A stretch of DNA of 10,092 nucleotides from a virus. Its lineage: Duplodnaviria > Heunggongvirae > Uroviricota > Caudoviricetes. Both the position numbers and the translations under genes were made by a program. The DNA lies in the IMG/VR virus record IMGVR_UViG_2671180636_000007; one strand, given 5' to 3'. The notes beneath the pieces were generated by a model. That model was not told the DNA's origin. It searched no databases and saw only the letters and a list, made by a program, of their open reading frames with translations. Of the stretch, positions 1 to 10,092 are shown in pieces; position 1 is the first letter of the stretch; each line of letters opens with the position of its first letter.

Positions 1-17
1 AAGTTGGAGTCATTACC
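1..17 (+). mobile_element. IS1 right terminus (last 17 nt including the right inverted repeat); the rest of this copy lies upstream of the window
   Basis: Seen: 'aagttggagtcattacc' at 1-17. From memory this is identical to the 3' terminal 17 nt of IS1 (...ATCAATAAGTTGGAGTCATTACC). Not verified by alignment. Confidence 0.8.
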
Positions 18-2073
18 AAACGGTTGAAATGTATGCCGCTACTTACGGGTCCTGTAATCCTCTGAATAAACCAGAGGGAAAAGATCTCAANNNNNNNNNN
101 NNNNNNNNNNNNNNNNNNNNNNNNNNNNNNNNNNNNNNNNNNNNNNNNNNNNNNNNNNNNNNNNNNNNNNNNNNNNNNNNNNNNNNNNNNNNNNNNNNNN
201 NNNNNNNNNNNNNNNNNNNNNNNNNNNNNNNNNNNNNNNNNNNNNNNNNNNNNNNNNNNNNNNNNNNNNNNNNNNNNNNNNNNNNNNNNNNNNNNNNNNN
301 NNNNNNNNNNNNNNNNNNNNNNNNNNNNNNNNNNNNNNNNNNNNNNNNNNNNNNNNNNNNNNNNNNNNNNNNNNNNNNNNNNNNNNNNNNNNNNNNNNNN
401 NNNNNNNNNNNNNNNNNNNNNNNNNNNNNNNNNNNNNNNNNNNNNNNNNNNNNNNNNNNNNNNNNNNNNNNNNNNNNNNNNNNNNNNNNNNNNNNNNNNN
501 NNNNNNNNNNNNNNNNNNNNNNNNNNNNNNNNNNNNNNNNNNNNNNNCACTGTCTGGTNNNNNNNNNNNNNNNNNNNNNNNNNNNNNNNNNNNNNNNNNN
601 NNNNNNNNNNNNNNNNNNNNNNNNNNNNNNNNNNNNNNNNNNNNNNNNNNNNNNNNNNNNNNNNNNNNNNNNNNNNNNNNNNNNNNNNNNNNNNNNNNNN
701 NNNNNNNNNNNNNNNNNNNNNNNNNNNNNNNNNNNNNNNNNNNNNNNNNNNNNNNNNNNNNNNNNNNNNNNNNNNNNNNNNNNNNNNNNNNNNNNNNNNN
801 NNNNNNNNNNNNNNNNNNNNNNNNNNNNNNNNNNNNNNNNNNNNNNNNNNNNNNNNNNNNNNNNNNNNNNNNNNNNNNNNNNNNNNNNNNNNNNNNNNNN
901 NNNNNNNNNNNNNNNNNNNNNNNNNNNNNNNNNNNNNNNNNNNNNNNNNNNNNNNNNNNNNNNNNNNNNNNNNNNNNNNNNNNNNNNNNNNNNNNNNNNN
1001 NNNNNNNNNNNNNNNNNNNNNNNNNNNNNNNNNNNNNNNNNNNNNNNNNNNNNNNNNNNNNNNNNNNNNNNNNNNNNNNNNNNNNNNNNNNNNNNNNNNN
1101 NNNNNNNNNNNNNNNNNNNNNNNNNNNNNNNNNNNNNNNNNNNNNNNNNNNNNNNNNNNNNNNNNNNNNNNNNNNNNNNNNNNNNNNNNNNNNNNNNNNN
1201 NNNNNGCTTGCTGCTACTTTGNNNNNNNNNNNNNNNNNNNNNNNNNNNNNNNNNNNNNNNNNNNNNNNNNNNNNNNNNNNNNNNNNNNNNNNNNNNNNNN
1301 NNNNNNNNNNNNNNNNNNNNNNNNNNNNNNNNNNNNNNNNNNNNNNNNNNNNNNNNNNNNNNNNNNNNNNNNNNNNNNNNNNNNNNNNNNNNNNNNNNNN
1401 NNNNNNNNNNNNNNNNNNNNNNNNNNNNNNNNNNNNNNNNNNNNNNNNNNNNNNNNNNNNNNNNNNNNNNNNNNNNNNNNNNNNNNNNNNNNNNNNNNNN
1501 NNNNNNNNNNNNNNNNNNNNNNNNNNNNNNNNNNNNNNNNNNNNNNNNNNNNNNNNNNNNNNNNNNNNNNNNNNNNNNNNNNNNNNNNNNNNNNNNNNNN
1601 NNNNNNNNNNNNNNNNNNNNNNNNNNNNNNNNNNNNNNNNNNNNNNNNNNNNNNNNNNNNNNNNNNNNNNNNNNNNNNNNNNNNNNNNNNNNNNNNNNNN
1701 NNNNNNNNNNNNNNNNNNNNNNNNNNNNNNNNNNNNNNNNNNNNNNNNNNNNNNNNNNNNNNNNNNNNNNNNNNNNNNNNNNNNNNNNNNNNNNNNNNNN
1801 NNNNNNNNNNNNNNNNNNNNNNNNNNNNNNNNNNNNNNNNNNNNNNNNNNNNNNNNNNNNNNNNNNNNNNNNNNNNNNNNNNNNNNNNNNNNNNNNNNNN
1901 NNNNNNNNNNNNNNNNNNNNNNNNNNNNNNNNNNNNNNNNNNNNNNNNNNNNNNNNNNNNNNNNNNNNNNNNNNNNNNNNNNNNNNNNNNNNNNNNNNNN
2001 NNNNNNNNNNNNNNNNNNNNNNNNNNNNNNNNNNNNNNNNNNNNNNNNNNNNNNNNNNNNNATAGGGCGGATT

Positions 2074-2359
2074 ATGAATCTTGGAGAATATTTGCATCAT
2101 TTTCATATAACCCAGAGTTCATTTGCTGAGATTGTTGGCGCATCCCAAGGGATGGTCAGCNNNNNNNNNNNNNNNNNNNNNNNNNNNNNNNNNNNNNNNN
2201 NNNNAACTTACAGGAGAAAAAATATTACGTTGGTGTGAAGCAACGGGATGGGTGGTGACCCCACATGAGATTGACAGTAAAACCTACCCCAACCCAACTG
2301 ACGGCTTGCCTGCTGAGTTTCAGGCTAACACACAACCATCGGCGGGGGTTGATTCATGA
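2074..2359 (+). CDS. Cro/YdaS-like HTH DNA-binding regulator, with an apparent reading-frame discontinuity inside the 44-nt masked block 2161-2204
   Basis: ATG at 2074 preceded by AGGGCGG (2064-2070). The N-terminal 29 aa MNLGEYLHHFHITQSSFAEIVGASQGMVS has an XRE/Cro-type helix-turn-helix signature (SQSSFAEIVGxSQGMVS pattern). After the mask the protein-like reading (LTGEKILRWCEATGWVVTPHEID...) is in the next frame and ends with TGA at 2357-2359, overlapping the downstream ATG at 2356 (ATGA coupling). The original frame stops at 2236-2238. The total would be about 95 aa if continuous. Confidence 0.55.
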
Positions 2360-2781
2360 AAATCAAGCATGAACACATCCGCATGGCGATGAAAGCCTGG
2401 GCGCATCCGGACGGTGAAAAAGTTCCGGCAGCTGAAATAACCAGGGTTTATTTCGAACTGGGAATGACGTTTCCGGTTCTGCATAACGACAGCAAGCACA
2501 ACACGCTTTATCTCAACACCCAAAAGATTTTCCGTTGGCTGGATAAAGACACCCCTGACGCTGTTGAAAAAATTCAGGCGTTGTTACCTGCGATCGAAAG
2601 GGCAATGCCACCTCCGCTGGTGGCTCGAATGCGCAGCCACAGTTCAGCTTATTTTCGGGAACTGGTGGAGACGCATGAACGACTGGTGAGAGACGCTGAT
2701 GATTTTGTCGCAGTGGCAATCGCCGGTTTCAATCAGATGAACCGTGGTGGCCCGGCAGGAAATGCTGTGGCAGTACATTGA
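2356..2781 (+). CDS. YdaT-like (CII-like) prophage regulatory protein, 141 aa; family assignment tentative
   Basis: Complete unmasked ORF with ATG 2356 and TGA 2779-2781. GGGGGT lies 6 nt upstream and the start overlaps the upstream stop in ATGA. It sits immediately after a Cro-like gene and before the replication genes, which is the YdaT position in Rac-type prophages. The N-terminus MKIKHEHI and the size match my recollection of the YdaT family, not a search. Confidence 0.7.
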   Translation: MKIKHEHIRMAMKAWAHPDGEKVPAAEITRVYFELGMTFPVLHNDSKHNTLYLNTQKIFRWLDKDTPDAVEKIQALLPAIERAMPPPLVARMRSHSSAYFRELVETHERLVRDADDFVAVAIAGFNQMNRGGPAGNAVAVH

Positions 2782-2852
2782 CTGACAATAGCCATATCGA
2801 ATCGCTCCCGGCAACTCGTGAGTAAAAAGATTCGGTATCAGAAGAGGTGAGT

Positions 2853-3749
2853 ATGGCTAACGCCTGGCTCAGATTATGGCATGACATGCCAAATGACCCT
2901 AAGTGGCGAACAATTGCCAGGGTGTCAGGGCAGCCAATTGCAACAGTGATGGCAGTGTATATCCACCTCCTGGTGAGCGCGTCACGAAATGTCACGCGAG
3001 GTCACATTGATGTCACGACAGAAGATTTGGCAAGTGCGCTCGACGTGACAGAAGAGGTAATTGATTCAATTTTGCAGACGATGCAGGGGCGGGTACTTGA
3101 TGGTGATTTAATCACTGGATGGGAAAAACGCCAGGTGCTTAAAGAGGACAACGGCAATATTTCGCAAACCGCAAAATCTCCTGCAGAGCGCAAGAGGGCG
3201 CAGCGAGAGAGGGAAAGAAAGCGGGAACAAAATGGCGATTGTCANNNNNNNNNNNNNNNNNNNNNNNNNNNNNNNNNNNNNNNNNNNNNNNNNNNNNNNN
3301 NNNNNNNNNNNNNNNNNNNNNNNNNNNNNNNNNNNNNNNNNNNNNNNNNNNNNNNNNNNNNNNNNNNNNNNNNNNNNNNNNNNNNNNNNNNNNNNNNNNN
3401 NNNNNNNNNNNNNNNNNNNNCCGGAAGCCGATTNNNNNNNNNNNNNNNNNNNNNNNNNNNNNNNNNNNNNNNNNNNNNNNNNNNNNNNNNNNNNNNNNNN
3501 NNNNNNNNNNNNNNNNNNNNNNNNNNNNNNNNNNNNNNNNNNNNNNNNNNNNNNNNNNNNNNNNNNNNNNNNNNNNNNNNNNNNNNNNNNNNNNNNNNNN
3601 NNNNNNNNNNNNNNNNNNNNNNNNNNNNNNNNNNNNNNNNNNNNNNNNNNNNNNNNNNNNNNNNNNNNNNNNNNNNNNNNNNNNNNNNNNNNNNNNNNNN
3701 NNNNNNNNNNNCGAGGGGGTGCCACCAGAGACCATGCTGGATGGTGTGA
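2853..3749 (+). CDS. Phage replisome organizer / replication initiator (O-like; replisome-organizer N-terminal domain family)
   Basis: ATG 2853 with AAGAGGT 5 nt upstream. The visible N-terminal 130 aa (MANAWLRLWHDMPNDPKWRTIARV...DLASALDVTEEVIDSILQTMQGRVLDGDLITGWEKRQ) fits the replisome-organizer N-terminal pattern W-x-K/R-L...DPK......E-D-L-A...L-x-V-x-E-E......G-L-I...W-E-K-R-Q. A basic, charged linker follows (ERKRAQRERERKREQ). The 3' end is uncertain: the frame passes through masked blocks 3244-3420 and 3434-3711 and stops at TGA 3747-3749. Confidence 0.7.
   Translation: MANAWLRLWHDMPNDPKWRTIARVSGQPIATVMAVYIHLLVSASRNVTRGHIDVTTEDLASALDVTEEVIDSILQTMQGRVLDGDLITGWEKRQVLKEDNGNISQTAKSPAERKRAQRERERKREQNGDCXXXXXXXXXXXXXXXXXXXXXXXXXXXXXXXXXXXXXXXXXXXXXXXXXXXXXXXXXXXXGSRXXXXXXXXXXXXXXXXXXXXXXXXXXXXXXXXXXXXXXXXXXXXXXXXXXXXXXXXXXXXXXXXXXXXXXXXXXXXXXXXXXXXXXXXXXXXXXRGCHQRPCWMV
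2981..3050. repeat. Iteron-like GTCAC(G) repeats inside the replisome-organizer gene; candidate replication origin
   Basis: Seen: GTCACG at 2981, GTCACG at 2991, GTCAC at 3001 and GTCACG at 3012 (10-11 bp phasing), plus an inverted copy CGTGACA at 3044-3050. GACAGAAGA is duplicated at 3017-3025 and 3046-3054. An AT-rich stretch 'gtaattgattcaattttg' follows at about 3057-3074. The repeats fall in all three codon positions, so they are not explained by amino-acid repetition alone. Confidence 0.45.
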
Positions 3750-4152
3750 GGCGTTACGCGAGATACCTGGCGGCGACCGGGAAAGCNNNNNNNNNNNNNN
3801 NNNNNNNNNNNNNNNNNNNNNNNNNNNNNNNNNNNNNNNNNNNNNNNNNNNNNNNNNNNNNNNNNNNNNNNNNNNNNNNNNNNNNNNNNNNNNNNNNNNN
3901 NNNNNNNNNNNNNNNNNNNNNNNNNNNNNNNNNNNNNNNNNNNNNNNNNNNNNNNNNNNNNNNNNNNNNNNNNNNNNNNNNNNNNNNNNNNNNNNNNNNN
4001 NNNNNNNNNNNNNNNNNNNNNNNNNNNNNNNNNNNNNNNNNNNNNNNNNNNNNNNNNNNNNNNNNNNNNNNNNNNNNNNNNNNNNNNNNNNNNNNNNNNN
4101 NNNNNNNNNNNNNNNNNNNNNNNNNNNNNNNNNNNNNNNNNNNNNNNNNNNN

Positions 4153-4890
4153 NNNNNNNNNNNNNNNNNNNNNNNNNNNNNNNNNNNNNNNNNNNNNNNN
4201 NNNNNNNNNNNNNNNNNNNNNNNNNNNNNNNNNNNNNNNNNNNNNNNNNNNNNNNNNNNNNNNNNNNNNNNNNNNNNNNNNNNNNNNNNNNNNNNNNNNN
4301 NNNNNNNNNNNNNNNNNNNNNNNNNNNNNNNNNNNNNNNNNNNNNNNNNNNNNNNNNNNNNNNNNNNNNNNNNNNNNNNNNNNNNNNNNNNNNNNNNNNN
4401 NNNNNNNNNNNNNNNNNNNNNNNNNNNNNNNNNNNNNNNNNNNNNNNNNNNNNNNNNNNNNNNNNNNNNNNNNNNNNNNNNNNNNNNNNNNNNNNNNNNN
4501 NNNNNNNNNNNNNNNNNNNNNNNNNNNNNNNNNNNNNNNNNNNNNNNNNNNNNNNNNNNNNNNNNNNNNNNNNNNNNNNNNNNNNNNNNNNNNNNNNNNN
4601 NNNNNNNNNNNNNNNNNNNNNNNNNNNNNNNNNNNNNNNNNNNNNNNNNNNNNNNNNNNNNNNNNNNNNNNNNNNCGAAAAACGAGCAGGTGGTATTGCA
4701 CCAGATAATTGATCGCCGGACAGCATCACTGTGCAGTGTCGGGATGTTAACAAACCTGAATCATGCCGCAATGAGCACGCTTCTTGGTGAGAGGATTATG
4801 GACCGCATGACCATGAACGGTTGTCGGTGGGTGACGTTTAACTGGGATAGCTGGCGTTCAAATGTCAGCTTTCCGGGAGTTGTGAAGTAA
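4153..4890 (+). CDS. DnaC-family replicative helicase loader (YdaV/P-like); only the C-terminal 71 codons (4676-4890) are visible and the start coordinate is an estimate
   Basis: The visible C-terminus KNEQVVLHQIIDRRTASLCSVGMLTNLNHAAMSTLLGERIMDRMTMNGCRWVTFNWDSWRSNVS matches, nearly motif for motif, the C-terminus of E. coli DnaC as I recall it (...QIVDRR...GMLTN.N.EEM.KLLGERVMDRM......VIFNWDSYRS.V). Stop TAA at 4888-4890. The start lies in masked block 3787-4675; 4153 is extrapolated from a DnaC-like length of about 245 aa. Confidence 0.6.
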   Translation, partial: XXXXXXXXXXXXXXXXXXXXXXXXXXXXXXXXXXXXXXXXXXXXXXXXXXXXXXXXXXXXXXXXXXXXXXXXXXXXXXXXXXXXXXXXXXXXXXXXXXXXXXXXXXXXXXXXXXXXXXXXXXXXXXXXXXXXXXXXXXXXXXXXXXXXXXXXXXXXXXXXXXXXXXXXXXXXXXXKNEQVVLHQIIDRRTASLCSVGMLTNLNHAAMSTLLGERIMDRMTMNGCRWVTFNWDSWRSNVSFPGVVK

Positions 4891-4911
4891 TTTTTGTTGG
4901 AGGATGTTTTA

Positions 4912-6183
4912 ATGGAAACTGTATTTGACGCACTGAAAGCACTGAAAAGAGCCTCTTCACATGTGGTGGCGTCCCGCCTTGGAATCAGCCGTGAAGATGC
5001 GGTCAACGAACTGTGGAAACTGAAGCGCCGTGGTGAAGCGGATAACAAGGGTTCGATGTGGTGGCTGATTCAGGCTGGTGAAAGTGAACCAGTGTCACCG
5101 GTACCGAAAGTGACAGCGCAAATGCTGACTGAGGCGATTGAACAACATGGCCCACAAACGGCGGATGAGCTGGCACTGATGTTCGGGATTACCTCNNNNN
5201 NNNNNNNNNNNNNNNNNNNNNNNNNNNNNNNNNNNNNNNNNNNNNNNNNNNNNNNNNNNNNNNNNNNNNNNNNNNNNNNNNNNNNNNNNNNNNNNNNNNN
5301 NNNNNNNNNNNNNNNNNNNNNNNNNNNNNNNNNNNNNNNNNAAGCCGCATCCATAGCGGAAACGGATGGTAAAGTNNNNNNNNNNNNNNNNNNNNNNNNN
5401 NNNNNNNNNNNNNNNNNNNNNNNNNNNNNNNNNNNNNNNNNNNNNNNNNNNNNNNNNNNNNNNNNNNNNNNNNNNNNNNNNNNNNNNNNNNNNNNNNNNN
5501 NNNNNNNNNNNNNNNNNNNNNNNNNNNNNNNNNNNNNNNNNNNNNNNNNNNNNNNNNNNNNNNNNNNNNNNNNNNNNNNNNNNNNNNNNNNNNNNNNNNN
5601 NNNNNNNNNNNNNNNNNNNNNNNNNNNNNNNNNNNNNNNNNNNNNNNNNNNNNNNNNNNNNNNNNNNNNNNNNNNNNNNNNNNNNNNNNNNNNNNNNNNN
5701 NNNNNNNNNNNNNNNNNNNNNNNNNNNNNNNNNNNNNNNNNNNNNNNNNNNNNNNNNNNNNNNNNNNNNNNNNNNNNNNNNNNNNNNNNNNNNNNNNNNN
5801 NNNNNNNNNNNNNNNNNNNNNNNNNNNNNNNNNNNNNNNNNNNNNNNNNNNNNNNNNNNNNNNNNNNNNNNNNNNNNNNNNNNNNNNNNNNNNNNNNNNN
5901 NNNNNNNNNNNNNNNNNNNNNNNNNNNNNNNNNNNNNNNNNNNNNNNNNNNNNNNNNNNNNCAGGCTCGTAAGGACTGGCAAAACGCCCGCAAAAAACTC
6001 TCGAGGGCAAAGCTGAAGAAACCATCTGTGGTTGATCCGGACCTTATCTGGTCATTACCGGACGGAGAAATACGCCGCTACGACAGACATCAGAACATAA
6101 TCTGTCGCGAGTGCCGGAAGAGTGAAGTTATGCAGCGTGTACCGGCTTTCTATCAGGGTGATTTTCAGGAGGCGGTACTGTGA
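4912..6183 (+). CDS. Uncharacterised protein with two tandem winged-helix-like segments at the N-terminus; the frame stays open across two masked blocks to TGA 6181-6183, so this may be one gene of about 423 aa or two genes
   Basis: ATG 4912 with a strong GGAGGA RBS (4898-4903) 21 nt after the DnaC-like stop. Visible N-terminus METVFDALKALKRASSHVVASRLGISREDAVNELWKLKRRGE...KVTAQMLTEAIEQHGPQTADELALMFGIT (two HTH-like units). Visible C-terminal part (5962-6183) ...QARKDWQNARKKLSRAKLKKPS...IICRECRKSEVMQRVPAFYQGDFQEAVL. Masked blocks 5196-5341 and 5376-5961 could hide a stop and a restart. Confidence 0.45.
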   Translation: METVFDALKALKRASSHVVASRLGISREDAVNELWKLKRRGEADNKGSMWWLIQAGESEPVSPVPKVTAQMLTEAIEQHGPQTADELALMFGITXXXXXXXXXXXXXXXXXXXXXXXXXXXXXXXXXXXXXXXXXXXXXXXXXXAASIAETDGKXXXXXXXXXXXXXXXXXXXXXXXXXXXXXXXXXXXXXXXXXXXXXXXXXXXXXXXXXXXXXXXXXXXXXXXXXXXXXXXXXXXXXXXXXXXXXXXXXXXXXXXXXXXXXXXXXXXXXXXXXXXXXXXXXXXXXXXXXXXXXXXXXXXXXXXXXXXXXXXXXXXXXXXXXXXXXXXXXXXXXXXXXXXXXXXXXXXXQARKDWQNARKKLSRAKLKKPSVVDPDLIWSLPDGEIRRYDRHQNIICRECRKSEVMQRVPAFYQGDFQEAVL

Positions 6184-6240
6184 GTGAAATTAGCTATCAG
6201 GCTTCAATTACCGCTGGCATTCGCATCAAAGGAGAGGAGC

Positions 6241-6597
6241 ATGGAAATAAAACCAGAAGATGAGTTAAGCAATATTGTTTTATTTCCGGTAAAAGAGGAT
6301 AACCCTCGTAATCAGGTTAATTTTCTTTATGAGCCATCGGAAAGACCATATTGCCATCACGCCTCTGTACGGGTTGACGAAAAAGAGCGTCAGGTCCGCT
6401 GTAAAATCTGCGGTGCGGTTGTGGAGCCGTTTGACTGGATGCTCTCTGTGGCAAAAAGAGAAACCAGACTGGCAGATGATGTAAGGCTCTTGCGCCAGGA
6501 GGAGCGGGAAAGGCGAAAAAATATAGAAAAGCTAATCCAGATTGAGCGTAATGCGAAAGCGCGGATACGCAGGGTGACAAAATATAGCCCCGAATAA
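6241..6597 (+). CDS. Small uncharacterised protein (118 aa) with a putative zinc-ribbon (C-H-H ... C-x2-C) and a charged coiled-coil C-terminal tail
   Basis: Fully unmasked ORF with ATG 6241 and an AAAGGAGAGGAG RBS directly upstream; stop TAA 6595-6597. Sequence MEIKPEDELSNIVLFPVKEDNPRNQVNFLYEPSERPYCHHASVRVDEKERQVRCKICGAVVEPFDWMLSVAKRETRLADDVRLLRQEERERRKNIEKLIQIERNAKARIRRVTKYSPE. I cannot assign a family from memory. Confidence 0.7.
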   Translation: MEIKPEDELSNIVLFPVKEDNPRNQVNFLYEPSERPYCHHASVRVDEKERQVRCKICGAVVEPFDWMLSVAKRETRLADDVRLLRQEERERRKNIEKLIQIERNAKARIRRVTKYSPE

Positions 6598-6729
6598 TCA
6601 AGGTTATTTCTGGAAGTCAAGTCGTGAGTGATGAGGACTAACAAATACGGTGAACTCGATAAAGAGATTCAGGACGAACTGGAGGCCAGGAATGATTGAC
6701 AAATCACCAAGTGAGTTCAGCTACAAAGA

Positions 6730-6745
6730 TTTATTGTCATAACGG
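6730..6745. repeat. Upstream copy of an imperfect direct repeat (TTTATTGTCAT-AACGG) flanking the restriction-modification cassette; the partner is at 10019-10035
   Basis: Seen: 'tttattgtcataacgg' at 6730-6745 versus 'tttattgtcatcaacgg' at 10019-10035. That is 11 identical nt plus 5 after a 1-nt indel, lying about 70 nt before the possible MTase start and about 110 nt after the REase stop. Statistical support is modest (AT-rich 11-mer). Confidence 0.3.
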
Positions 6746-6801
6746 GTTATGAGATCGACTTGGTGCGTGATATTCTTCGGGCCAGTTTGCTATGCGCCAC
6801 C

Positions 6802-8547
6802 ATGAGNNNNNNNNNNNNNNNNNNNNNNNNNNNNNNNNNNNNNNNNNNNNNNNNNNNNNNNNNNNNNNNNNNNNNNNNNNNNNNNNNNNNNNNNNNNNNN
6901 NNNNNNNNNNNNNNNNNNNNNNNNNNNNNNNNNNNNNNNNNNNNNNNNNNNNNNNNNNNNNNNNNNNNNNNNNNNNNNNNNNNNNNNNNNNNNNNNNNNN
7001 NNNNNNNNNNNNNNNNNNNNNNNNNNNNNNNNNNNNNNNNNNNNNNNNNNNNNNNNNNNNNNNNNNNNNNNNNNNNNNNNNNNNNNNNNNNNNNNNNNNN
7101 NNNNNNNNNNNNNNNNNNNNNNNNNNNNNNNNNNNNNNNNNNNNNNNNNNNNNNNNNNNNNNNNNNNNNNNNNNNNNNNNNNNNNNNNNNNNNNNNNNNN
7201 NNNNNNNNNNNNNNNNNNNNNNNNTATCTGATTGGGTCAATTTATACGGTAATGCTGCCATCCGCTTACCGTTCGGAATTGGGGGCTTACTATACCCCCC
7301 CACCTTTGGTAGCGCGTCTCTTGGACCTGGCTGAAAAGTCTGGTGTTGATTTTTCTCATGCATCGGTTATTGATCCTGCGTGTGGTGGCGGTGCATTTTT
7401 GGCACCAGTAGCCATTCGAATGTTAAAAAAAGACAAGGGGTCTTCCCCTGAATGGATGTTGAGGAGAATCAGTCGTCGTTTAAAGGGGATAGAGATCGAT
7501 CCATTTGCGGCTTGGATGAGTTTGGTATTGCTCGAATCTGTACTAATGCCACTATGTGTAAAGGTAAAACGTAGATTGCCTGAAGATACAATTATTGTTG
7601 CTGATGCGCTTCAGCAAGATAAATTTTCTGGTTATGATCTTGTGGTAGGGAATCCGCCTTACGGACGTGTCACTCTCGATATTAAAACGAGAGAAAAATA
7701 TTCTCGTTCGTTATTTGGTCATGCAAATCTATATGGATTGTTCACCGACTTAGCTGTTCGCATGGTTAAAGAGAAAACAGGAGTTATTGCATTTCTTACG
7801 CCAACTTCTTTTCTTGGTGGGCAGTATTTCACCGCGCTGCGAACCCTTTTGACCGAAAAAACTACTCCGTATGCCCTTGATTTCGTCACTGACAGGGATG
7901 GGGTCTTTGACGATGTTCTCCAGGAAACAATGTTGACAGCATTCAAGGCGGGAGAACATAAAGTTCGGGCCCAGGTATCCTCACTTGTCCCTAAGGGGTT
8001 GAACAAAGCAAAAATTGAGAAAATAGGTAATGTTGATATAGAAAAAGGTGGAGCAACGTGGCTTTTGCCACGCGTTAAAGATGATGCCTGTTTTCTTAAT
8101 GTATTAAAACAGATGTCTACGCGTTTAGCTGATCTGGGATACTCAGTCTCTACAGGTCAGTTAGTCTGGAATCGATTTAAGTCGCAGTTGCGTACGACGA
8201 AAGGAAAAAATAGCTACCCATTAGTCTGGGCGGAATCAATAACTTCAGCTGGTTTTCGTTTTAGTGCAGACAGAAAAAATCATGTTCCCTATATCGATAT
8301 AACCCCACAACAGGGTTTCCTTGTGACAAAATCTGAATGTGTGCTTGTTCAGCGGACAACATCGAAGGAACAGGACAGAAGGATTTTAGCGGCAATTTTA
8401 CCTCAGGGATTTATAGATGAAACTGGTGGCGTAGTAGTTGAAAACCATATTAATATTGTATATTCAAACGGATTGTTCTCTGCGGTTCGCCCTGATGTTA
8501 TTGATATGCTACTTAATTCGCATGTTGTCGATCGGGCGTTCAGGTGT
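6802..8547 (+). CDS. Gamma-class N6-adenine DNA methyltransferase (Eco57I/PstI-methylase-like) of a restriction-modification system; both ends lie in masked sequence
   Basis: The visible 441 codons (7225-8547) contain GAYYTPPPLVARLLDL, motif I DPACGGGAFLAP (FxGxG-type SAM pocket) and motif IV NPPYGR (N6-adenine catalytic motif) in the gamma-class order. A possible in-frame ATG at 6802 (no clear SD) precedes masked block 6807-7224, so the true start could be there or inside the mask. The 3' end is in masked block 8548-9254. Confidence 0.85.
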
Positions 8548-9254
8548 NNNNNNNNNNNNNNNNNNNNNNNNNNNNNNNNNNNNNNNNNNNNNNNNNNNNN
8601 NNNNNNNNNNNNNNNNNNNNNNNNNNNNNNNNNNNNNNNNNNNNNNNNNNNNNNNNNNNNNNNNNNNNNNNNNNNNNNNNNNNNNNNNNNNNNNNNNNNN
8701 NNNNNNNNNNNNNNNNNNNNNNNNNNNNNNNNNNNNNNNNNNNNNNNNNNNNNNNNNNNNNNNNNNNNNNNNNNNNNNNNNNNNNNNNNNNNNNNNNNNN
8801 NNNNNNNNNNNNNNNNNNNNNNNNNNNNNNNNNNNNNNNNNNNNNNNNNNNNNNNNNNNNNNNNNNNNNNNNNNNNNNNNNNNNNNNNNNNNNNNNNNNN
8901 NNNNNNNNNNNNNNNNNNNNNNNNNNNNNNNNNNNNNNNNNNNNNNNNNNNNNNNNNNNNNNNNNNNNNNNNNNNNNNNNNNNNNNNNNNNNNNNNNNNN
9001 NNNNNNNNNNNNNNNNNNNNNNNNNNNNNNNNNNNNNNNNNNNNNNNNNNNNNNNNNNNNNNNNNNNNNNNNNNNNNNNNNNNNNNNNNNNNNNNNNNNN
9101 NNNNNNNNNNNNNNNNNNNNNNNNNNNNNNNNNNNNNNNNNNNNNNNNNNNNNNNNNNNNNNNNNNNNNNNNNNNNNNNNNNNNNNNNNNNNNNNNNNNN
9201 NNNNNNNNNNNNNNNNNNNNNNNNNNNNNNNNNNNNNNNNNNNNNNNNNNNNNN

Positions 9255-9909
9255 CTTTGATGCCGGGCTTGAAGGAGATTCGCTGCTGAGTGCAATAAGT
9301 TCCTGGCAAGAAAATCATTTGAACAAAGCCGCTCTTGCTAGGTTGCGTTTATTGAAATCAGGGGCAGTGATTGCTGCTGATGCCGTAGTCGTCACTTTCC
9401 CAAATGGAGAGAAGAGAACTTTAGCTCCGGGCCCGTCAAGTACAATAGCTAAGGCCGTCATCGAAGTTTTTGCTCCTAATTTTCTTAAGAATCCAACTGT
9501 GCTCTGGTTGTCTGAATCCGGGAATAAAGTTGTTGCTCAGGATGATGTATTGGCAAAAGCATTGGGGCTGAATATTGATGCCTCAAAAGCACTTCCAGAT
9601 ATTATTTTGATTGATTTGGGAGAGGACCGAACGGGTTCGGACATGCTTGTAGTTTTCACTGAAGTAGTTGCGACAGATGGGCCTATAAACAGGGAACGAA
9701 AAGTTACTCTCACTCATTTGGCTATTGACGCTGGGTTCAGCGAGAAAAATCTTGCATTCCTTACGGCATTTATGGACAGAAGTGCTCTGCCTTTTAAAAA
9801 GGCAATACCAGAATTGGCGTGGGGATCTTATGCATGGTTTGCTTCTGAACCGGAGCACTTAATTGATCTTCGGGATGGTTATCCGGTAAAGATCAGCCAG
9901 AGAAAATGA
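9255..9909 (+). CDS. Putative Type II restriction endonuclease, C-terminal 218 codons visible (BsuBI/PstI-like assignment tentative); the 5' end is masked and the protein could alternatively be the C-terminal part of an M-R fusion
   Basis: Protein-like frame immediately downstream of, and in the same frame as, the methyltransferase: ...LPDIILIDLGEDRTGSDMLVVFTEVVATDGPINRERKVTLTHLAIDAGFSEKNLAFLTAFMD...; stop TGA 9907-9909. The PD...D...E-V-V segment is reminiscent of a PD-(D/E)xK-type core, and the overall feel resembles BsuBI/PstI-family REase C-terminal domains (from memory, not a search). Position next to a gamma-class MTase supports an R role. Confidence 0.55.
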
Positions 9910-10018
9910 CCAAAGTTTGATATCCGCCACGCCCTGAAGGATGGGGGTTTTACGGTGCACTGGATAAAAAATCGGTTTCATAGATTTGCCCACCGTGGTA
10001 TACGCCTGCGATAAAAAC

Positions 10019-10035
10019 TTTATTGTCATCAACGG
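10019..10035. repeat. Downstream copy of the imperfect direct repeat flanking the restriction-modification cassette
   Basis: See the partner at 6730-6745. Confidence 0.3.
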
Positions 10036-10061
10036 CAAAAGCAATAATTGTTCTGTGGCGG

Positions 10062-10092
10062 GGTGATGCTGCCAACTTACTGATTTAGTGTA
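10062..10092 (+). mobile_element. IS1 left terminus (first 31 nt including the left inverted repeat); the rest of this copy lies beyond the window
   Basis: Seen: 'ggtgatgctgccaacttactgatttagtgta' at 10062-10092. From memory this is identical to the first 31 nt of IS1 (GGTGATGCTGCCAACTTACTGATTTAGTGTATGATGG...), in the same orientation as the IS1 end at 1-17. Confidence 0.85.

Follow-up and report, generated by a model that had tools for sequence, protein, structure and literature searches.

A 10,092-nucleotide stretch of DNA from IMG/VR virus record IMGVR_UViG_2671180636_000007 (the window, meaning this whole stretch) starts inside the end of one copy of the insertion sequence IS1 and stops inside the beginning of another. 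Do these two copies, here called IS1-L and IS1-R, make the DNA between them a composite transposon of the Tn9 type, as a preliminary description of the window had proposed, or did they come to flank it separately? We consider it very probable that the window is part of a lambdoid prophage remnant at the Qin site of Shigella sonnei, lying between direct IS1 copies that were acquired independently, and that this bracket is a coincidence that never moved as a unit. The finding is an ordinary one, already known in kind.

The IS1 copies and their flanks

The annotated IS1A of Escherichia coli K-12 (NC_000913.3, 19796-20563) was used as the IS1 reference. The window opened with the terminal 17 nt and closed with the first 31 nt of this element, exactly and in the same orientation, as had been described; matches of these lengths are far beyond chance. 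The junctions were then followed in nine chromosomes (L008-L016; 4.8-5.0 Mb, complete or nearly so), retrieved through their identical YdaT protein, among which L016 (CP026802.1) is S. sonnei ATCC 29930, L015 is CP064376.1, and L009 is CP032523.1. In all nine, both junctions ran into a full IS1 of 767-769 bp with 99.2-99.7% identity to IS1A, and IS1-L and IS1-R both lay on the + strand as direct repeats. Therefore, the expectation that the ends would extend into two complete, directly oriented copies was borne out. All the 768-bp copies had open insA and insB and the A6C frameshift motif TTAAAAAAC, single-base length differences were found in two copies (IS1-L of L008 and IS1-R of L014), and Pfam IS1 domains were found in the called products.

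Next, the flanks of each copy were compared. The 9-bp sequence AAACGGTTG was present on both sides of IS1-L in six genomes (L010 and L012-L016). The IS1-free locus of E. coli H240 had AAACGGTTG once, with identical DNA on both sides, and the target was a 66-amino-acid (aa) hypothetical open reading frame (ORF) between dicB and a ydfA-like gene. Its own intact duplication and the single copy of the target in the IS1-free strain mark IS1-L as a simple insertion event in prophage DNA.

IS1-R had no target duplication. Its left flank (...CTGTGGCGG) was the middle of a gene for a 103-aa RelE/ParE toxin that is intact in E. coli FDAARGOS_943, and its right flank (CATATAACA...) aligned to position 1,630,961 of K-12, between ydfI and ydfJ. 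The absence of a duplication, together with the fusion of the toxin gene to the ydfI-ydfJ intergenic region, identifies IS1-R as a deletion endpoint. On this side, ydfJ and all the late prophage genes were lost.

A transposon bounded by the two copies would have been expected, according to the preliminary description, to show an 8- to 9-bp duplication outside them. This check failed: the outer 9 bp read AAACGGTTG on the left versus CATATAACA on the right, and in the deletion variants described below the outer left 9 bp were AACCGGAAA or CACGGGTCG while the outer right 9 bp were still CATATAACA. In our view, this mismatch excludes that the pair came in as a composite transposon or through a cointegrate.

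According to the history that we propose, what survives in the window is the early region of a lambdoid prophage resident at the Qin site, which the two IS1 copies entered separately while IS1 was expanding in the lineage. IS1-L transposed alone into prophage DNA, making the 9-bp duplication seen today. IS1-R inserted into the RelE/ParE toxin gene that it now interrupts, and then became one end of a deletion that took away the prophage beyond it together with ydfJ; here the fusion is what is observed, and the route to it is deduced.

The way in which the window breaks off might itself have created the appearance of a bracket. In that case its IS1 ends would be contig-end debris, and the source, through misassembly or in a rearranged strain, may lack a full same-orientation IS1 at one or both ends. 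The window does stop 17 and 31 nt into IS1, like contigs broken at repeats; its exact left junction had no match in genome_contigs, and it differs from its relatives at a few positions. However, the exact 42-nt and 40-nt junctions recurred in several independent IMG/VR contigs as well as in the nine finished chromosomes, where both led to full direct IS1 copies, and we regard this explanation as very unlikely. The IMG/VR contigs with the exact junction sequences came from isolate genomes and ended 31-80 nt into IS1. The identical YdaT protein was listed in 6,106 sample blocks, and in 4,029 of these the longest contig carrying it was 5-10 kb. The window is thus probably a short-read contig broken at IS1 repeats. 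Contigs running from IS1 to IS1 are a normal product of short-read Shigella assembly, so a Tn9-like look is not evidence of mobility unless target duplications are checked.

The prophage at the Qin site

The segment was flanked on one side by ynfF, ynfG, ynfH, dmsD, clcB, and mlc and on the other by ydfI, ydfZ, rspR, ydfG, and dcp, all of which are neighbors of Qin in K-12. A dicB-ydfD-ydfE block upstream was 92% identical to that of K-12 Qin. The segment is therefore an in situ prophage remnant at the Qin site. It followed a lambdoid early-region gene order that matched intact prophages, and integrase and late genes were absent from the listed S. sonnei loci. Every chromosome-sized contig recovered with the YdaT look-up had the segment at the same locus. 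Among 5,426 complete E. coli genomes, neither IS1 junction was found; 395 complete E. coli genomes had positions 18-85 of the window without IS1.

Taken in the strict sense, the Tn9-like architecture of the preliminary description would make the segment a true composite transposon, in which both IS1 copies and the 9.5-kb cargo moved in together through the outer IS1 ends. The layout stood up, with two intact direct IS1 copies around cargo as in Tn9, but the transposon did not: there was no outer duplication, no site lacking the whole unit, and a single locus. The outer flanks AAACGGTTG and CATATAACA differ, the duplication of IS1-L spans one IS only, and the DNA to the left of IS1-L continues the prophage sequence, which is uninterrupted in E. 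coli, at what is the ancestral Qin site. Moreover, searches of E. coli genomes, plasmids, and phages gave no second location of the segment (the plasmid and phage searches covered the restriction-modification [R-M] part), and the long contigs with YdaT were all at one locus. Joint arrival is therefore extremely improbable.

The suggestion that the segment marks a plasmid cointegrate junction, that is, a plasmid or phage replicon fused by replicative IS1 transposition with a direct IS1 at both joints, fits direct IS1 repeats around a segment with replication genes but retains next to no probability: the target duplication would be split between the outer flanks and was not seen, prophage DNA runs on from the interior past IS1-L, the replication genes form the lambdoid O/P-type module that prophages at the Qin site usually carry, and the R-M part had no plasmid matches. 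An origin from the phage-plasmid P1, which carries IS1 beside res/mod, was also considered and was rejected; all matches were to lambdoid prophages, and the R-M part had none in plasmids.

We return to a Qin-site remnant with separately acquired IS1 copies and compare it with Qin of K-12. The two elements share their position (from the ydfI/ydfJ side to the ynfE/F side), their orientation, and the dicB, ydfD, ydfE, and ydfA-like genes. Both also have a toxin-antitoxin pair, which lies after the replication region and before the Q region. In contrast, the S. sonnei element has a different early-region mosaic (YdaT, O-like, DnaC-like, DUF1627, and DUF977 genes) and a PstI-family R-M cassette that is absent in K-12, whereas ydfJ and every late gene are missing from it.

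IS1 activity at the locus

The preliminary description also held that IS1-IS1 recombination could delete DNA here, and this was seen for a neighboring pair. A third direct copy (IS1-U), with its own duplication AACCGGAAA, was located 1.2 kb upstream of IS1-L. IS1-U was at about 4904-5671 in L010 and L012-L016, whereas L008, L009, and L011 had, at about 6915-7684, a single hybrid IS1 that was flanked like IS1-U on its left and like IS1-L on its right. In these three, recombination between the two IS1 copies deleted one of them along with the 1.2 kb in between. In addition, the DNA to the left of IS1-U was replaced by a point inside ynfF in L008 and L011-L014. All four combinations of the hybrid-IS1 state and the ynfF-deletion state occurred among the nine genomes. 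As deletions are irreversible, we infer that at least one of these events happened more than once, so that IS1-mediated deletion appears to be recurrent at the locus. Recombination of the same kind between IS1-L and IS1-R, excising the interior, would leave TATTTTTGATAAAACGGTTG, one IS1, and CATATAACAAAACATATAG; serving as a substrate for such homologous recombination would be the realistic activity of the pair. Another example of ongoing simple insertion was observed further upstream in L009, where an IS1 at 544-1311 had a clean 9-bp duplication, CATCTCAGG.

With regard to Tn9 (IS1-cat-IS1), the likeness lies in two complete direct IS1 copies with intact ends and transposase genes that flank a cargo. 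The S. sonnei unit differs in that it has no outer target duplication and in that IS1-L has a duplication of its own; its cargo is not a captured gene but 9.5 kb of in situ prophage DNA, and the unit was seen at one genomic site only. Transposition of IS1-flanked units reportedly falls steeply with size (Chandler, Clerget, and Galas 1982, J Mol Biol), and given this dependence, a unit of 11 kb would seldom move.

In Shigella, IS1 outnumbers the other ISs, IS insertions disrupt genes, and deletions arise next to or between copies (Hawkey et al. 2020, PMC7373316; Yang et al. 2005, cited there). The S. sonnei locus matches this expansion with its simple insertions, its IS-bounded deletion, and its IS1-IS1 recombinants, and no substantive difference was apparent; we found no paper describing this particular locus. 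It is a clear small example of IS1 eroding a prophage through simple insertion, IS-bounded deletion, and recurrent IS1-IS1 recombination, and it is of note for a PstI-family R-M cassette that is rare elsewhere. Its significance beyond housekeeping is small.

How unusual is such a bracket? In S. sonnei 53G, the 4.99-Mb chromosome carries 165 copies of IS1 (Hawkey et al. 2020, PMC7373316, S1 Table). For 165 copies placed at random, a Poisson estimate gives about 22 pairs of direct IS1 copies within 9.5 kb of each other per genome by chance. A direct IS1 bracket is therefore routine in S. sonnei.

Several points weigh against a coincidental bracket at the Qin site. The chance estimate presumes random IS1 placement. 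A strain name was established for one of the nine chromosomes only (L016). The full IS1 copies at the window's own ends are deduced from identical junctions in other genomes. The deletion at IS1-R may have been an IS1-mediated adjacent deletion or a recombination with another IS1. Finally, judged from their sequences, both IS1 copies look functional, and the unit may yet move in future.

Cargo genes and the restriction-modification cassette

Of the window, 51% was masked with N, in eleven runs. When unmasked anchors were placed on related genomes, the N runs turned out to distort real lengths in both directions, being shorter or longer than the DNA that they replace: 457 N stood for 705 bp, 44 N for 22 bp, and 889 N for 695 bp. 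The interior was 9,509 bp in complete genomes versus 10,044 bp in the window. As the runs do not preserve length, ORF lengths and frames read across masks in the window are meaningless, and the gene content of the cargo was read from the complete genomes (Table 1). The cargo had been described as an R-M cassette combined with a module for prophage regulation and replication, and gene calls in the complete genomes, Pfam, NCBIfam, and RefSeq names agreed with this description.

Table 1. Features of the window (positions in the 10,092-nt stretch; real gene lengths in aa)
Feature	Position	Strand	Remark
IS1-L tail (right inverted-repeat end), AAGTTGGAGTCATTACC	1..17	+	Last 17 nt of IS1A
Right-hand copy of the 9-bp IS1-L target-site duplication, AAACGGTTG	18..26		Same 9 bp to the left of IS1-L
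Hypothetical gene (121 aa) and DUF1391 (YdfA-like) gene	91..547, approximate	-	Masked; placed with gene calls of L008-L016 and anchors
ParE/RelE-family toxin (96 aa), PaaA2/RelB-family antitoxin (64 aa), HTH_3 DicA-like repressor (166 aa)	559..2061, approximate	-	Mostly masked
Cro/DicC-like regulator (87 aa)	2074..2359	+	44-N mask replaces 22 real bases; RefSeq homologue is a Cro/CI family regulator
YdaT-family protein (141 aa)	2356..2781	+	Fully unmasked ORF; PF06254
Phage replisome organizer, O-like (354 aa)	2853..4668, end approximate	+	3' end in masked run
DnaC-like helicase loader (248 aa), 3' part	4669..4890, stop 4890	+	Start masked; NF009043, DnaC matches, PF01695
DUF1627 (241 aa, start 4912), then DUF977 (140 aa, stop 6183)	4912..6183	+	Boundary within masked run 5376-5961
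Hypothetical ORF (137 aa, or 118 aa), ead/Ea22-neighbor type	6184..6597	+	In many prophages; no NCBIfam match
N6-adenine DNA methyltransferase (610 aa), N6_Mtase and Eco57I domains	6807..8740, approximate	+	Both ends masked; PF02384, PF07669
BsuBI/PstI-family type II restriction endonuclease (360 aa)	8735..9909, stop 9909	+	Start masked, approximate; PF17728, PF06616; RefSeq name
RelE/ParE-family toxin stump, last 36 codons and stop	9950..10061	-	Residues 68-103 of the intact 103-aa FDAARGOS_943 toxin
IS1-R head (left inverted-repeat end)	10062..10092	+	First 31 nt of IS1A

The endonuclease, with its BsuBI_PstI_RE domains, adjoins an N6-adenine methyltransferase, and the two are predicted to form a type II R-M system of the PstI/BsuBI family. 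The endonuclease protein was identical in eight of the nine S. sonnei-type loci and in E. coli FDAARGOS_943, with one difference in L011. The cassette was present in every S. sonnei-type genome read; together with the adjoining RelE/ParE-ParD pair (window 6807-10061; L001 9399-12925), it was found in 2 of the 5,426 complete E. coli genomes, both without IS1 beside it, and the R-M part had no match in plasmid or phage records. In FDAARGOS_943, the R-M-bearing E. coli that was examined fully, the cassette had the replication genes on one side and the RusA/Q region on the other, in a complete prophage integrated at potB/potC. This location argues that the cassette is a mosaic module and is not site specific. 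The idea that the cassette came from an E. coli prophage at the same attachment site was rejected, given the potB/potC position of the FDAARGOS_943 copy.

A deletion of 1,847 bp was observed in L015 at 12702/12703 (corresponding to 12703-14549 of L016 and to about 5280-7290 of the window), with no obvious microhomology. DUF977 and the hypothetical gene are lost entirely, DUF1627 is lost in part, and the methyltransferase lacks its first ~140 codons, whereas the endonuclease stays intact. The methyltransferase of L011 was split too. This damage suggests that the R-M pair may be inactive or silent, or that the assemblies contain errors.

Could the addiction modules have preserved the locus? The 9.5-kb piece might be a deletion-resistant island, kept by ParE/PaaA2 and the PstI-family R-M pair, which would penalize IS1-IS1 excision, even as its surroundings to the left and right suffered repeated deletion, and still mobilizable as an 11-kb IS1 composite. 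We regard this as unlikely: the truncated methyltransferase next to an intact endonuclease in L015 speaks against an active addiction role of the R-M pair.

The genes at 559-2061 form, as judged from their families (PF05016 for the toxin, PF21217 for the antitoxin, and PF01381 for the repressor, plus NCBIfam matches), an immunity and toxin-antitoxin module. A module of a helix-turn-helix (HTH) regulator, a PaaA2-family antitoxin, and a ParE-family toxin was observed at the prophage immunity position (8625-9629 in L013), and we take it to resemble PaaR2-PaaA2-ParE2 of E. coli O157:H7 prophages. The gene order beside the immunity region is the same (PF01381, PF21217, PF05016); the likeness is at the domain level only, and the genes are masked in the window.

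The window differed from every recovered relative at a few positions. Just before the first mask, positions 86-90 read CTCAA, where all relatives have GATTT. At 6363-6453, six substitutions were found within 90 bp relative to the otherwise near-identical finished S. sonnei chromosomes. The segment around these positions has paralogues in other prophages, with three copies in L004, and the substitutions may be a gene-conversion patch. Among the related IMG/VR contigs, L005 had ~2.4 kb (3631-6007), including an IS3-family piece, between two single Ns in the interior, probably a scaffolding artifact. L004 and L006 shared the left IS1 junction with the window and diverged downstream, and L004 had an inverted IS1 at 9927-10694.

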